NCBI GenBank assembly: GCA_963804645.1
Contig: CAWDRG010000001.1
Span: forward strand, 128,696-192,695
Direction of reading: 5' to 3'
Length of the DNA: 64,000 nt
Source of the DNA: an uncultured Bacillota bacterium
GTDB taxonomy: Bacteria > Sysuimicrobiota > Sysuimicrobiia > Sysuimicrobiales > Segetimicrobiaceae
Shown here one piece after another: positions 17,811-22,929 of this stretch. Each line of letters begins with the position of its first letter. Positions within the stretch are counted from its first letter, which is position 1. The translations under genes were made by a program, and so were the position numbers. The notes below the pieces were generated by a model. That model made no database searches. It was not told where the DNA came from and saw nothing but the letters and a program-made list of their open reading frames with translations.

Positions 17811-19421
17811 CTACGCGCGCCCCCCGCGGCCGAACGCGCGGAGCAGCTCGATCTCCCGGACCCCGAGCGCGGCGCAAACGGCCAGATACACCGCGCCGCC
17901 GAGCAACAGGGCCGTCCCAAGCTGCACCACGGCGCCGCCCAGGTGCGCGGCGCTGACGAACCTCCCCAGCACACGCAGCGTGATCAGCATCGTCACGGCG
18001 AGCGCGGCGGACGCGATCGCGGTGCGGACCGCCGTCAGGGCAATGTCCCGACCGCCGAGCCGGCCGAGGCGCCCGCGCAGCAGCCACAAGAGGACGCCCA
18101 CGTTCACGATCGAGACGACCGAGGTGCAGAGCGAGATGCCCAGGTACCCGAACCACCGGAGCAGCAGCCAGTTCCCGGCCGCGTTCAGGGCGATCATGAA
18201 GACCCCTACCCGCACCGGCGTGCGCATGTCGTGGAGGGCGTAGTACGTGCGCGTCACGATATAGTAGGCGGCGTACGGCACGGTGCCGACGGCGAACGCC
18301 GCCAGCGCTCCGGCGACGGCCTGCGTCGCCGCCGGCTCGAACATCCCCCGCTGGAACAGCACCCGGACCATGAGGTGGCTCGCCGCGAACGTCGCCGCCA
18401 TCACCGGCATCATCGTGAACAGCACGCCCCGGAGCCCGAGCGACGTCGTGTCCCGCAGCTCGTCCCTCCCGCTGCCCGCGGCGTGCCGCGACATCGTGGG
18501 GAACAGCGCGGTGGCGAGCGACAGCGCGAAGATCGCGACCGGCGCCTGGATCAGCTGAAACGCGTAGTCGAGCACGGCCACGTAATCGACACCCGGCGGG
18601 CCGACCAGGAACGAGGCGAAAAAGCGGTTGACGTTCGAGTTGATCTCGATCACGGCGAGGCCGAGCATCGCCGGCAGCGCCAGCCGCCCCATGTCCCGGA
18701 TCACGGGATGCGCCAAGTCGATGCGCGGCGTCCAGCGCAGGCCGGCCGCGCGCGCGGACGGCAGCTGGACCAGGAACTGCGCCACCCATCCCGCGAGAAA
18801 GCTCAGGGCGATGCCGAGGATCCCGATCCGGGGCGCGAGCAGGAACACGCCCCCGATGATGACGACGTTGAAGACGCTCGGCGCGACCGCCGCCATCGTG
18901 AACTGCCGGTGCGCGTTGAGGTAGCCGGTCGCGAACGCCGACAGCGCGAGGAACACCATCGACACGAACATCACACGGGTCAGGACGATCGCCTGCGCGA
19001 TGACGCCGGGATTGTGGATCAGGTATCCCGGCGCGGCGATCGGCACCAGCACCGGCGCCGCGACCACGCCGATGACCACCATCGCCAGGCCGATCAGAAT
19101 GACCAGGTTGAGCGTGCTCGTGACGACCCGCTCGGTCTCTTCCGGGTCTCCCCGCAGCAGCACGCGGGTCAGCGTGGGGATGAAGACGATGCTGAGGGTG
19201 CCGCCGAGGAAGAGACGCTGGACGAAGAACGGAAGGGAGTACGCGATCACGAACGCGGCTCTGACCGACGTCGCGCCGAACATCGCGGCGATCACGACGT
19301 CCCGGACCAGACCGAGGACTCGGCTCGCGATCGTCGCGACGGCGATCACGCTGGCCGCTCGAGCCAACCCACGGGCCGAGGTCGCGGGACGAGCCGTGGC
19401 CCCGGGTTTGACGCTCTCCAT
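17811..19421 (-). CDS. murJ: Lipid II flippase MurJ
   Basis: SRVLGLVRD, FIP, ATALFP, YYALHDMRTP motifs; many TM segments. Confidence 0.93.
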   Translation of the reverse strand: MESVKPGATARPATSARGLARAASVIAVATIASRVLGLVRDVVIAAMFGATSVRAAFVIAYSLPFFVQRLFLGGTLSIVFIPTLTRVLLRGDPEETERVVTSTLNLVILIGLAMVVIGVVAAPVLVPIAAPGYLIHNPGVIAQAIVLTRVMFVSMVFLALSAFATGYLNAHRQFTMAAVAPSVFNVVIIGGVFLLAPRIGILGIALSFLAGWVAQFLVQLPSARAAGLRWTPRIDLAHPVIRDMGRLALPAMLGLAVIEINSNVNRFFASFLVGPPGVDYVAVLDYAFQLIQAPVAIFALSLATALFPTMSRHAAGSGRDELRDTTSLGLRGVLFTMMPVMAATFAASHLMVRVLFQRGMFEPAATQAVAGALAAFAVGTVPYAAYYIVTRTYYALHDMRTPVRVGVFMIALNAAGNWLLLRWFGYLGISLCTSVVSIVNVGVLLWLLRGRLGRLGGRDIALTAVRTAIASAALAVTMLITLRVLGRFVSAAHLGGAVVQLGTALLLGGAVYLAVCAALGVREIELLRAFGRGGRA

Positions 19422-19565
19422 AGTCGCCGACATTATAGCACAGGCCTCACGCGGACCATCGCGATGGGAAGCACACGGTAGTGTACGGTGTTGTGTGTAA
19501 AAGCAGGGACCCCAAGAGAGAGGGCGTACCCCCGACCTGACCAACCGAAAGGAGGGATACGCCCG

Positions 19566-20924
19566 ATGGCCAGTGTAGCCGCACTGACCGATCTCACCGT
19601 AGCCGATTTGTGGAGGGAGGTCAAGGATGAAGCGACCTTGTGGGGCGACGTGTCTCGGGAGACGCTCCGCACGGTCAAGCTCTTGTTGGAGAACCGGATG
19701 CACGATGAGTTGATCAACCATCTGAATGCTGGCCGGTATACTCGGAATCCGGACCGGCAGGGGTATCGGAATGGCGTCTACCGCCGCCGCTTGGTGACGA
19801 CGTGGGGCACCATTCCCGATCTCCATATCCCCCGGGCCCGCCAGAGCGGGTTCCAGCCCTCGGTGCTCGGCCGCTACCAGCGCCGCACCAGCGACGTCAA
19901 CGCGCTCGTCCGCGCCGTCTTCCTCGGCGGCCTCTCGACCCGCCAGGTCGGGCCCGTCCTCGCCAAGCTGCTCGACGACGTGGTGAGTCCCACGACCGTC
20001 TCGACGATCACCCGGGCCTTAGATCAGGCCGCGGCGGCCTTCCACCACCGGACGCTGGGCGATGACTATCAATATCTGTTCCTCGACGCCGTCAGTCTCC
20101 GGGTGAAAGGGCTCGCGGGGAGCAAGCGCCGCTTGATTCTCGTGGCCTACGGCATTCGGCCGACCGGGCAGCGGGACCTGATCGATTTCCGGCTGGCCCG
20201 CTACGAGACCCAAGCCACCTGGGAAGCCTTTCTCACGACGCTGGCCTGCCGCGGGTTGGTGGGGAAACAGTTGCAGCTGATTACGACGGACGGCCAGCGG
20301 GGCCTCCATGCCGCCCTCGATTTGGTCTATTCGGACGTCCCGCGCCAAGCGTGCTGGGTCCATGTCCTCCGCAACGTGGCGAATCGGCTGCGGGTCAAGG
20401 ACCGGGAGGCGTGTCTGCGGATGGCGCGCCGGATCTATCAGGCGCCGACCGTCCACGCCGCGAGCCGCCTCCTGCGGCAGTGGGTCCAGGCCTGGCAGGC
20501 CACGGCCCCGGCGGCGGTCGCCTGTCTGACGCGCGAGGAAGACGCCCTGCTCAGCTTCTATGCCGTCGCCGAGGCGGACTGGCGACGGGTGCGCACGACG
20601 AACGCGATCGAACGGGTGTTTCGCGAAGTCCGCCGGCGCACGCGCCCCATGACGTGCTTCACGAACGTGGCCAGCTGTGATCGGATTATCTATGCGATCG
20701 TGTATGCTCTGAACGTCCGGCAGGCGAGGCGCTCTCTCTCAAGGGAATCTACACATAACTCTAGTATGAGAGTCAACGGTCGGGTGAAAAGGATCTGGAC
20801 CGTCCCCCCGGTACCGGTGAGTGGGGCCCGTGATGCCCACTACCCTCCCGGAGGAGGCGATCCAGATGCAGATGACGATCGGAGTGCGCCGGCGTATCGC
20901 GAAACAGACCCAACGCCGAGCTGA
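19566..20924 (+). CDS. IS256-family (Mutator) transposase, C-terminally extended by the nested insertion
   Basis: GYRNG, YLFLDA, TTDG, CxxH (CWVH), RTTNAIERVFREVRRR; the native stop TGA now lies at 22445-22447. Confidence 0.93.
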   Translation: MASVAALTDLTVADLWREVKDEATLWGDVSRETLRTVKLLLENRMHDELINHLNAGRYTRNPDRQGYRNGVYRRRLVTTWGTIPDLHIPRARQSGFQPSVLGRYQRRTSDVNALVRAVFLGGLSTRQVGPVLAKLLDDVVSPTTVSTITRALDQAAAAFHHRTLGDDYQYLFLDAVSLRVKGLAGSKRRLILVAYGIRPTGQRDLIDFRLARYETQATWEAFLTTLACRGLVGKQLQLITTDGQRGLHAALDLVYSDVPRQACWVHVLRNVANRLRVKDREACLRMARRIYQAPTVHAASRLLRQWVQAWQATAPAAVACLTREEDALLSFYAVAEADWRRVRTTNAIERVFREVRRRTRPMTCFTNVASCDRIIYAIVYALNVRQARRSLSRESTHNSSMRVNGRVKRIWTVPPVPVSGARDAHYPPGGGDPDADDDRSAPAYRETDPTPS

Positions 20925-22161
20925 ACTGACACCGGAGACGTTGATTGTGGCCTTGGATCTGGGCAAACACCAGCACGCCGTATGGGTGACTGATTCGACA
21001 CGCATTCCCCTGGATACCTGGGTGATGCCGACCAGTCCCGAAGGGTTTGCCACTCTCTTCGATCGAACCGCGCGCCTGCAAGAGCGATTCGGGCGCCCCC
21101 AGTTGCTGTTCGCCATGGAACCGACCAGTCACTTTTGGAAGCTGGCCGCACAGCAGATCACAGACCGCGGCGCGCGCTATCGCCTGGTGCAACCGTTGTC
21201 CGTGCGGCGAGCGCGAGAAGAACAGCGGTACACCTGGGCGAAAGGCGACCGGATCGACGCAGAACTGATCGCCACCCTGATTGCAAACGGGACATGGCTG
21301 GAGAAGCAGCTGGAAACGGGACCGTGGGGCACTTGGGAACAACTGGCGCGCACGCGGCTTCACTTGGTGCAGCAGCGGGCCGATATCTTGCGAGAACTGC
21401 TGGCACTGGTCGAGCTGTGGTTTCCAAATTATCCCTACTTGCCCCACGGAGTGACGCAACCGGGCTCGGTCGCGGTGTTGCGCAGTTGCCCCACGCCGGC
21501 GGAGATTCAACGCCTGAGCGCCGAGGCGTTTCTGACCCGCGTGCGTGCCCACTATACCGGAGCGCGGTTCCTCCCACGCCGTATCTTGCGGGTCTATCAC
21601 GCGGCCAAGCACACCTGGGGCCTGCGAACTGATCGGTTGACCGCCGGCTTGCGCATTCGCATGGCGGTCCGCCGCTACGCATTACTGACCGAGCAGATTG
21701 CGACAACGGAACGTCACCTCGCCCGATTCTATCGCGCCAGCGGCGCGCGGGCCCTGTTGGAGACCATTCCAGGCTTGGGCGCTGCGGTGGCCAGTACGCT
21801 CGTTGCGCTGATGGGCCCGGTCAATCGCTACGATCGTAGTCGTTGCGTCGTGCGGCTCGCCGGGGCGGAACCGACCGAAAATGCGTCTGGCACATTTCAA
21901 GGGCACACTCCGGCGAGTCATCGCGGGCGCGGGGCGCTGCGATTGGTGGCCTACCAGGCAGTCCTCGGCCTCATTCGCTGTAATCCCGAGTTTCGAGCCA
22001 GGTACGATTGGCTAACCACACGACCGAAGCGGCCGCTCCATCAGATCGCGGCCCGCGTCGCGCTGGCCAATAAACTATTGCGTACCATTTATACGATACT
22101 TGTCACACACTGTCCGTACGATGCTTCCGTGGCGCGCGGGGAGGGGCGGAACTCGCAGTGA
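20866..22161 (+). CDS. IS110-family DEDD recombinase/transposase
   Basis: RuvC-like ALDLGK, MEPTSHFW, KGDRIDA; C-terminal LETIPGLG, TENASG (conserved Ser), SHRGRGALR; ATG after GGAGGAGG. Confidence 0.95.
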   Translation: MQMTIGVRRRIAKQTQRRAELTPETLIVALDLGKHQHAVWVTDSTRIPLDTWVMPTSPEGFATLFDRTARLQERFGRPQLLFAMEPTSHFWKLAAQQITDRGARYRLVQPLSVRRAREEQRYTWAKGDRIDAELIATLIANGTWLEKQLETGPWGTWEQLARTRLHLVQQRADILRELLALVELWFPNYPYLPHGVTQPGSVAVLRSCPTPAEIQRLSAEAFLTRVRAHYTGARFLPRRILRVYHAAKHTWGLRTDRLTAGLRIRMAVRRYALLTEQIATTERHLARFYRASGARALLETIPGLGAAVASTLVALMGPVNRYDRSRCVVRLAGAEPTENASGTFQGHTPASHRGRGALRLVAYQAVLGLIRCNPEFRARYDWLTTRPKRPLHQIAARVALANKLLRTIYTILVTHCPYDASVARGEGRNSQ

Positions 22162-22167
22162 TCAGTA

Positions 22168-22369
22168 CCGTCCTGCTAGGGCAGCCCGGCACCGCATCTC
22201 TTGGGCACAACCCGATGTCAAGCATGGGCACGCCCTCCCGCGTACCCCGGATGGCGGCTGGTGGGAACACCCCGTATCGCCACTAGAGTGGGATGGGAGG
22301 ACGAGACTCAAGTGGGACGCGTACAGAAACTGTTTCTCAATACTAGGTTATAGCTCACTAAGCAGGCGG
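22168..22369 (+). ncRNA. Putative bridge RNA/seekRNA of the IS110 element
   Basis: Closing stem 22168-79 with 22358-69, internal hairpins, TGTCAAG antisense to the target and ATACTAG antisense to the donor junction. Confidence 0.75.
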
Positions 22370-22551
22370 CGAGAAAAAACGGCCCCCTGCGCACGGGGAG
22401 ACATGTGTCACCGAGGGGACTTGACAAGACTCTCATAGGCTGCTTGACACTACCGAAGCACACCGGCTTAATGCCGTTTTTCCGAGTTCCAGCGCGCGAC
22501 GTGAAGAGCAACTGATGGTCGAGCAATTTCCCGGACCGGTATCCTGCATCC

Positions 22552-22929
22552 ATGAAGCGGACGACGATGCCTTGTACCATTTGTGCCACCTCGCTGAATC
22601 CCAACGGGGTCGCGGTGGGGACTCCGTACCAGGTCAGTAGTGGCAACTGGAACTTTGATATCAAACCGGGGCCCAAGCTTGGAAACGGCGAAAGCAGTTA
22701 CGACACTGTCCTGATCGTCACCTATAAGGATGGGAAGAAGCAATGCCTCATCATGCGCCCCCTTGGGACGGTGGTCTACAACCCGGCCGGAACGGCCGTG
22801 ATCCTGACAATTGTGTTCGACGAAGGGGGATCCGTGAAGACGCATCGGGAGGTCTCGTTGACCAATTGGCTTCCGCGGCCCACGGTCACGACGCCCTCTC
22901 CGACGCCCAATCAACCGGGCGGTGACTAG
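22552..22929 (+). CDS. Hypothetical protein
   Basis: 125-aa ORF with natural-looking composition and a Pro/Thr tail, lower GC than its flanks; no motif recognised. Confidence 0.45.
   Translation: MKRTTMPCTICATSLNPNGVAVGTPYQVSSGNWNFDIKPGPKLGNGESSYDTVLIVTYKDGKKQCLIMRPLGTVVYNPAGTAVILTIVFDEGGSVKTHREVSLTNWLPRPTVTTPSPTPNQPGGD

Follow-up and report, generated by a model that had tools for sequence, protein, structure and literature searches.

How does one insertion sequence come to lie, exact to the base, inside the terminal repeat of another, and what reads the site? The question is raised by a locus in a 64,000-nucleotide (nt) stretch of DNA from an uncultured Bacillota bacterium of the GTDB family Segetimicrobiaceae (GenBank assembly GCA_963804645.1, contig CAWDRG010000001.1, positions 128,696 to 192,695 of the forward strand). 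We call this whole stretch the window and count positions within it, except where a contig label such as C2 precedes them. Here, an IS110-family element interrupts the right inverted repeat of an IS256-family element (Table 1). The insertion at the IS256 repeat is targeted and not a product of chance, and we consider it probable that the insert is an intact IS110 element of the bridge-recombinase kind, integrated site- and orientation-specifically at a CT in the IS256 right repeat, with the RNA-guided cycle proposed below.

An IS110-family element in the right repeat of an IS256-family element

Elements of the IS256 family have a Mutator-type DDE transposase, terminal repeats of about 25 base pairs (bp) and target duplications of 8-9 bp. 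All of these were found in the outer element: a Mutator-type transposase (Pfam PF00872 at 2.4e-83; NCBIfam IS256 model NF033543 with 298.6 bits, cut-off 150), 25-bp repeats identical at 19 of 25 positions and a 9-bp duplication. The element opens with GGTAGTGTACGG at 19477 and closes with TGACACTACC at 22454, and GAAGCACAC stands at both flanks. Contigs from the peat runs X1 and X2, in which ...CATCGCGATGG is joined straight to 22455, represent the locus without any IS256 element and keep a single copy of the duplication; these empty-site contigs fix the IS256 ends and the 9-bp duplication. The preliminary description, made from the sequence alone, had let the composite run from 19477 to 22463. 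Its start stands, whereas its end does not, as the IS256 element stops at 22454 and 22463 takes in the right copy of the duplication.

Excising 20763-22444 fuses ...TCTACACATAACTCT to TGACACTACC, and recomputation returned the values first reported, namely a right repeat of 25 bp that agrees with the left repeat at 19 of 25 positions and an IS256 element of 1296 bp. An intact IS256 with the reconstructed repeat, which had been proposed as a check, is present in the same genome: the copy ending at C2:163723 carries the uninterrupted ...ATCTACACATAACTCTTGACACTACC, the exact reconstructed string, so that the reconstruction is independently proved. The reading frame of the transposase tells of the same event. 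With the insert removed, TGA follows directly after codon 399 and the native stop is restored; with the insert present, the frame continues through 53 foreign codons to 20924, because the insert displaced the native TGA, which is located in the right repeat. The right repeat is split into 15 + 10 bp and the transposase stop has been swapped for a 53-codon tail, and the interrupted IS256 copy is therefore most likely immobile.

The insert junction lies 10 bp inside the right inverted repeat, between ...AACT CT and TGACACTACC, and contigs of two public runs finish ...AACTCT + TGACACTACC(C). As had been claimed from the start, CT is the sole sequence common to both insert junctions (20761-20762 and 22443-22444). 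No target duplication surrounds the insert and the uninterrupted target holds one CT; by convention, the CT of the insert is counted with its right end.

The recombinase gene of the insert is intact, and its product combines a DEDD RuvC-like domain (PF01548 at 5.7e-19) with a Tnp domain (PF02371 at 8.7e-17) and scores 171.1 bits against the NCBIfam model 'IS110 family RNA-guided transposase' (NF033542, cut-off 140). Its residues D42, E96, D139, D142, S352 and G353 are invariant among 11 homologues, and its motif GAEPTENASG has the form GAEP....SG. The two subterminal repeats (20765-20774 and 22428-22437) are a perfect pair of 10 bp.

A search of the organism's own genome with the IS256 part gave 11 matches, of which seven are full-length copies at 94-100% identity, the window's copy included; the remaining matches are one copy in two pieces, one at 72% identity and one fragment of 53 nt (right ends in Table 1). 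One of these copies, C2:163724-167121 (locus L040), has been interrupted near position 590 by 2.1 kb of DNA with a gene for a DDE_Tnp_1_4 transposase (1.1e-78), and it is this copy that carries the intact right repeat equal to the reconstructed target. In another, C2:218036-219313, the right repeat is two bases shorter, with one T lost on either side of CT. To the left of the locus, a minus-strand frame at 17811-19826 resembles, by appearance, a MurJ-type lipid II flippase and is a candidate for one; it ends close to the IS256 left end, and the IS256 element stands just past its start region.

Recurrence of the landing site among relatives

Because the genome holds a single full copy of the IS110-family element, targeting was judged from relatives instead. 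A protein search with the recombinase yielded 11 clusters at 70-100% identity, the next lower standing at 39%. The recombinase was not found among 60 other genomes at E <= 1e-30, nor in 93 other genomes of the phylum searched at E <= 1e-40; the genome contig collection held only partial matches (29-31%), and the 894 records from the plasmid collection all stayed below 60% identity, with the top-ranked match at 29%. Since genomes and plasmids offered no close relatives, the comparison set consists of six contigs (L015-L020) from a metagenome scan, which carry relatives 79-100% identical to the element, 100% in L015 and 79-88% in L016-L020. The search also returned a 302-amino-acid (aa) protein (P0025) with a phage-integrase domain (PF00589) and 85% identity over 17% of the recombinase, which may be a fusion or a gene call spanning a junction.

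The most informative of these contigs are L018 and L019, whose element shares 79% DNA identity with that of the window. In both, a second IS256-family element has the left end of the inserted element next to AATTTACACCCCTCT in one of its repeats. The transposase of this second IS256 element is present in two frameshifted pieces (PF00872 at 5.1e-33 and 6e-24) and is 28% identical to the window's IS256 transposase; the two IS256 elements have no DNA match with each other. The far repeat of this second element is empty in L019, where it reads AATTTACACCCCTCTTGACATTACC, and in L018 the same repeat is filled at the identical base, in inverted orientation, by a different element variant (identical at 55 of 62 positions to the first copy of L018 and at 59 of 62 to L017). 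Taken with the window, this makes three independent insertion events in two very different IS256 relatives, all of them after CT and 10 bp from the outer end, and in all three the left end of the inserted element points to the IS256 interior. Landing in terminal repeats at one position and in one orientation was thus found side by side with empty counterparts (C2:163723 and L019), and every insertion whose right side is known (three of three) lies in an IS256-family repeat. What the element targets is the outer end, conserved among the repeats of the IS256 family, CT-TGACA(C/T)TACC (hyphens within target strings mark junctions), a sequence that is present in many copies and is kept in very distant members of the family. 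The earlier suggestion that the element makes use of IS256-family ends is supported by the recurrence of the same base and orientation in the window and in both repeats of the second IS256 element.

Could a single chance insertion into IS256 instead have spread afterwards, as a composite or by recombination between IS256 copies? Two contigs look as though it might have, in that they show the same element in different surroundings. L015 (1-1397) has the same insertion and right flank as the window; its first 111 nt come from an X-type IS110 element (on X see below), and its IS256 part matches the C2:218035 copy at 99.5% identity. Its left part arose either through chimeric assembly of different IS256 copies or through genuine recombination, and L015 was left out of the event count (L016 comes without flanks). 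In run X6, from a separate study, the right end of the element is followed by TGACACTACC and then by a foreign flank, a 17-nt probe from which is absent from the organism's own genome. Such spread would not, however, bring the element into a second IS256-family element whose DNA is unlike that of the first except at the repeat end, nor place two different element variants there, one per repeat, with one repeat empty in L019 and occupied in L018; the split right repeat moreover makes composite transposition unlikely. Already contradicted by the L018 and L019 contigs, an origin by chance is in our estimate very remote.

Several observations nevertheless weigh against a targeted, IS256-specific landing. 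With a single copy in the genome, no target logo can be obtained from the genome itself, and the X6 context could stem from recombination between IS256 copies and may thus not be independent. Two of the four distinct left junctions among the relatives (L017 and L020) are outside recognisable IS256 elements: the L017 flank agrees with the repeat of the second element at 11 of 18 positions and has no IS256 gene in the 824 bp available, and the L020 flank agrees at five of 18 and adjoins a DUF881 gene. Both contigs stop short of the 3' non-coding regions that would hold the guides. No mate repeat was found upstream of either (best 13 of 20 for L017 and 12 of 20 for L020), and an alignment of their flanks over 200 nt, at 70% mean column identity, revealed a single short shared word, AGAACTTA. 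In the organism's own genome, eight other IS256-type right ends are unoccupied, as are all five sites outside IS256 that read CTCTTGACA. Other copies at unrelated sites had been named in advance as the outcome that would refute targeting, and this outcome was encountered in part, L020 being unlike the repeat, L017 repeat-like, and L018 and L019 lying in IS256 repeats.

The same observations bear on a reading in which the element needs just a short generic word, approximately CTCT-TGACA and similar to a -35 promoter word, of which IS256 repeats happen to be the commonest carriers. L020 and perhaps L017 would then be ordinary insertions outside IS256 elements, the perfect complementarity described below covers only about 9 bp of the target, and CTCTTGACA is available at five non-IS256 places; yet none of these five places is occupied, IS256-family repeats hold all three insertions for which the right side is known, and the L017 flank resembles the repeat (11 of 18) well past the guide footprint. 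We regard the generic-word reading as improbable and retain the IS256 repeat as the target.

A predicted structured RNA and its candidate guides

If the landing is targeted, what reads the target? The region downstream of the recombinase gene contains a predicted RNA domain of two arms. The sense-strand fold of 22165-22330 reaches z = -2.47, with four of 200 shuffles as good, whereas the antisense fold gives z = -0.27 (80 of 200), and the structure of 22298-22400 does not exceed that of shuffles (z = +0.71). Three of 53 predicted pairs are compensatory when the window is compared with L019, a comparison of two sequences only; one of the three belongs to the inner stem of arm 2 and another to the base of arm 1. 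In the peat metatranscriptome X14, one contig falls on 20300-22800; it covers 22179-22397 and is identical to the window. The IS256 part, which has far higher depth in the DNA runs, is yet uncovered in X14, and the lack of this multi-copy part argues for RNA over carried-over DNA. A covariance model of both arms (R1, built from two sequences) matched, in the organism's own genome, itself (2.1e-27) and one further site at E 3.4; having found only itself, it indicates that the other IS110-type elements of the genome add no guide-target pairs. One X1 contig over 22237-22450 joins 22324 to 22419, with 94 nt skipped or replaced and an extra G after 22266, which suggests a relative differing in the same variable stretch of the non-coding region as L019.

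The left guides of the IS621 bridge RNA are described as pairing with the bottom strand on the left side of the core, and its right guides with the top strand on the right side; once the top strands have been exchanged, the right guides pair in addition with the core that comes in and with two handshake bases of the partner (PMC11208158). Both arms of the window's RNA hold, on their 3' sides, segments of this kind. UGUCAAGCA in arm 1 is a perfect 9-nt complement of the top strand at the right junction, TG-CT-TGACA, that is, of two bases at the tip of the right end, the core and the five target bases that follow it. ACUAGAGU in arm 2 is a perfect 8-nt complement of the top strand at the left junction, ACT-CT-AGT, which comprises the target bases just before the core, the core itself and three bases from the start of the left end. 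Of 2000 shuffles, about 1% did as well for either match. Both L018 and L019, with CT-TGACAT in the target, retain GAUGUCAAG, and arm 2 of L019 has UACUAGAG opposite its own left junction. As far as can be judged from sequence, the right-side complementarity matches the published rule for the right guide, core guide and handshake of IS621. The 5' side of arm 1, for its part, ends ...CAUCUCU directly before the inner stem and is the single hypervariable patch between the RNAs of the window and L019 (GCAUCU versus AUGCCC); a left target guide would be expected at this place.

Part of the evidence does not favour guidance by this RNA. The candidate left target guide pairs at only five of seven positions, wobble included, and fits the target of the other element equally well or better, for which reason we claim no covariation for it. 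No same-sense match to the right end, as expected of a left donor guide, was found in either arm. Covariation rests on two RNA sequences, the X14 contig comes from one run and gives neither strand nor ends, and a scan of 19300-22700 against Rfam at E <= 1 returned no match. Two candidates were dropped along the way: CUGCUAG at 22173, which matches the circle junction and had been considered as left donor guide, has its A paired in a compensatory stem (L019), and 6-mer matches between RNA and target off the core occur at chance level (about six expected by estimate). Separately, the 12-nt AUACUAGGUUAU sits in an unstructured stretch and is absent from the aligned part of L019; it may be a second guide, a fossil junction or a product of chance (estimate about 0.002).

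These gaps would suit a reading in which the specificity is real and is read by the recombinase protein or the subterminal repeats, the 3' region being a mere scaffold, leader or terminator. No clear left guide was found, the variable patch lacks clean covariation with the target, Rfam is silent, and subterminal repeats, here of 10 bp, may mean a different mode of end recognition (PMC11187229). The protein is nevertheless above the cut-off of a family model for RNA-guided IS110 recombinases, two junction-complementary segments occupy equivalent places in two conserved arms (P about 0.01 each), and the candidate right target guide has been kept in a pair of elements whose common target is CT-TGACA. 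Recovery from the RNA run is limited to the non-coding region, and all family members tested employ such an RNA (PMC11187229, PMC11208160). On balance we hold reading by protein to be unlikely, slightly more so than the generic-word reading, and prefer guidance by RNA. Of the original term 'RNA-guided', the site-specific landing is thus observed, and the guidance itself is suggested by family membership, the RNA contig, the fold and the junction complementarity.

From the family we infer a cycle of circle, junction promoter, RNA-guided synapsis and serine exchange. The element would depart as a circle, in which the junction of right end and left end would make a promoter. When the element ends are joined, the string, read by eye, is TTGACA, 17 bp and TAGTAT (22444 plus 20763-20767), and the circular form would in this way build a promoter TTGACA-17 bp-TAGTAT; among the contigs mapped to the region, none contains the circle-junction joint. 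A structured RNA from the 3' non-coding region would then be bound by the recombinase. One arm would read the IS256 repeat: CT+TGACA of the top strand would pair with the 3' side of this arm, and the bottom strand to the left of the core probably with its 5' side. The second arm would read the joined ends of the element itself, and a serine-mediated exchange of strands at CT would finally insert the circle without target duplication. Near the right end, a hairpin with a T-run (CTCCCCGTGCGCAGGGGG CCGTTTTTTC) at 22383-22400 of the minus strand is terminator-like, points inward and could halt antisense read-in.

Table 1. Positions of the features discussed, in the window or, where a contig label is given, elsewhere in the genome
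Feature	Position	Strand	Remarks
Target duplication, left copy, 9 bp, GAAGCACAC	19468..19476	no strand	read from sequence and empty-site contigs
IS256-family element, left 1286 bp	19477..20762	+	PF00872, NF033543, own-genome search
IS256 left terminal repeat	19477-19501	+	inside left 1286 bp
IS256 transposase frame	19566..20924	+	ATG 19566; 399 native codons to 20762, then 53 foreign codons
IS256 right repeat, inner 15 bp	20748-20762	+	inside left 1286 bp
CT core, left junction	20761..20762	+	
IS110-family element, 1682 bp	20763..22444	+	same starting base in L015-L020
Left subterminal inverted repeat, TATGAGAGTC	20765..20774	+	2 nt from left end (after AG); conserved in L016-L019
Recombinase gene, 442 aa	20833..22161	+	ATG 20833 (446 aa if GTG 20821)
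Non-coding region downstream of recombinase gene, 283 nt	22162..22444	+	
Structured RNA domain (predicted)	22166..22323	+	closing stem (22166-22177 with 22311-22323) around two arms; fold, compensatory pairs
Arm 1, candidate target-binding loop	22178..22236	+	right-junction complement
Metatranscriptome contig, 219 nt	22179..22397	no strand	peat run X14
Hypervariable patch, candidate left target guide	22191-22200	+	arm 1, 5' side
Candidate right target guide, core guide and handshake, UGUCAAGCA	22216-22224	+	arm 1, 3' side
Arm 2, candidate donor-binding loop	22237..22297	+	left-junction complement
Candidate right donor guide, core guide and handshake, ACUAGAGU	22282-22289	+	arm 2, 3' side
AUACUAGGUUAU, 12 nt	22340..22351	+	perfect complement of left junction predicted for variant repeat ...ATAAC-CT (C2:218036-219313)
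TTGACA of candidate circle-junction promoter	22421..22426	+	computed donor string; putative function
Right subterminal inverted repeat, GACTCTCATA	22428..22437	+	7 nt from right end (then GGCTG, CT)
CT core, right junction	22443..22444	+	
IS256 right repeat, outer 10 bp, TGACACTACC, severed from element	22445..22454	+	sequence, uninterrupted copies
Target duplication, right copy, GAAGCACAC	22455..22463	no strand	read from sequence and empty-site contigs
IS256 right end ...ACAAAACACT-TGACACTACC			5 copies
IS256 right end ...ACATAACTCT-TGACACTACC	C2:163723		1 copy; identical to reconstructed string
IS256 right end ...ACATAACC-TGACACTACC	C2:218036-219313		1 copy
IS256 right end ...AAAAGAGT-TGACACTACC			1 copy, the 72% one
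X/Y loci	C6:106364-109300, C19:112825-116032, C17:852727-855713, C21:520-4897, C16:28-1519		

Known systems and insertion sequences living on insertion sequences

Where does the element belong? The initial label 'IS110/IS1111-type' can be narrowed: by the criteria of PMC11187229, the sequence of the recombinase is IS110-type and not IS1111-type, and the protein, the extensions and the order of the RNA segments agree on the former and not on a canonical IS1111 element. IS1111 recombinases have 330-350 aa and the motif GL-P----S(t)G, their elements have extensions of 7 bp on the left and 3 bp on the right, and the top-strand match lies 5' of the bottom-strand match in their RNAs (PMC11187229), whereas the window's element has 442 aa, GAEP....SG, a left extension of 2 nt and a right one of 7 nt, and its candidate bottom-strand match (22198) precedes the top-strand match (22216). 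It shares with IS1111 the subterminal repeats (11-13 bp there according to PMC11187229, 7-17 bp according to PMC11208160) and the non-coding region downstream of the gene. Most IS110-type members, in contrast, have an upstream non-coding region and no clear subterminal repeats, although one IS110-type subgroup has the non-coding region downstream (PMC11187229). Closest in several respects are the ISEc21-type IS110 members with a seekRNA (PMC11187229): the recombinase falls into their class of 395-455 aa with the motif G--P----SG, and, as in these, the predicted bottom-strand match is 5' of the top-strand match and the two overlap at the insertion point.

The preliminary description had also likened the core to that of IS621, and the comparison agrees with both PMC11208160 and PMC11208158, in which the IS621 core is CT. 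The circle junction of IS621 forms a promoter (PMC11208158), and the window's element would resemble IS621 in its own putative circle-junction promoter and two-armed RNA (PMC11208160, PMC11208158). Each arm's 3' side complements the top strand right of the core, the core and at least two handshake bases of the partner, and the 5' side of the candidate target arm ends CU just ahead of the inner stem, again as in IS621. The elements differ in that the window's RNA would lie downstream of the gene and that of IS621 lies in the left end, in that the window's recombinase is about 110 aa longer and its element has 10-bp subterminal repeats and no recognisable left guides, and in the target, a REP-type sequence for IS621 and a transposon end here.

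Homing on the ends of other elements is a known habit. IS4321 and IS5075, as Partridge and Hall reportedly described in 2003, target the terminal repeats of Tn21-family transposons. The window's element resembles them in its DEDD recombinase, subterminal repeats and downstream non-coding region, and in taking a fixed position and orientation in another element's terminal repeat without target duplication. It differs in targeting IS256-family repeats and not Tn3-family transposons, in its IS110-type recombinase of 442 aa (theirs are IS1111-type with 330-350 aa), in the reversed order of the predicted target segments in the RNA and in its left and right extensions of 2 and 7 nt (theirs are 7 and 3). 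The supposition that this pairing of element and target had not been described held up in so far as we found no paper on IS110-family targeting of IS256 repeats, in a search that did not extend to ISfinder and supplementary target tables, and the word 'IS256' occurs zero times in the text of PMC11187229 and PMC11208160.

The genome itself offers a second case of one insertion sequence inside another. The model of IS110 RNA-guided transposases gave 28 matches in the organism's own genome, 21 of them above the cut-off. In five of six copies of an X-type IS110-family element, a Y-type IS110-family element of about 1.4 kb occupies one and the same place within the 3' non-coding region, ...CCGCCGAATA-TCAGAGTG...; the X copy on C16 is empty of Y, and on C21, X, a 77% variant of Y and X alternate. 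Living on other insertion sequences is thus not unique to the element studied here in this organism. The IS110-family load of the genome is unusually heavy, yet the recombinase of the window's element is absent (E <= 1e-40) from all 93 further genomes searched within the phylum.

The finding leaves the known mechanism unchanged and places IS256-family repeats among the few transposon ends on which elements with DEDD or bridge recombinases are known to land. It makes available a natural before-and-after pair for each of two very different IS256 relatives, as well as a natural test case for donor reading by a bridge-type RNA that lies downstream of the gene in an element with subterminal repeats. 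Elements of the IS256 type occur widely and are often active, and disabling them copy by copy is relevant to the dynamics of insertion sequence populations. We suggest, tentatively and as a possibility that we do not ourselves favour, that the element represents a dedicated lineage of IS256 hyperparasites, each hit disabling a copy, within a guild of RNA-guided elements that live mainly on insertion sequences. If this were true, the guide would read the part of the IS256 repeat that is constant across transposases only 28% identical, so that the element could follow IS256 relatives between hosts, and the guild would shape or restrain the load of insertion sequences in its host.

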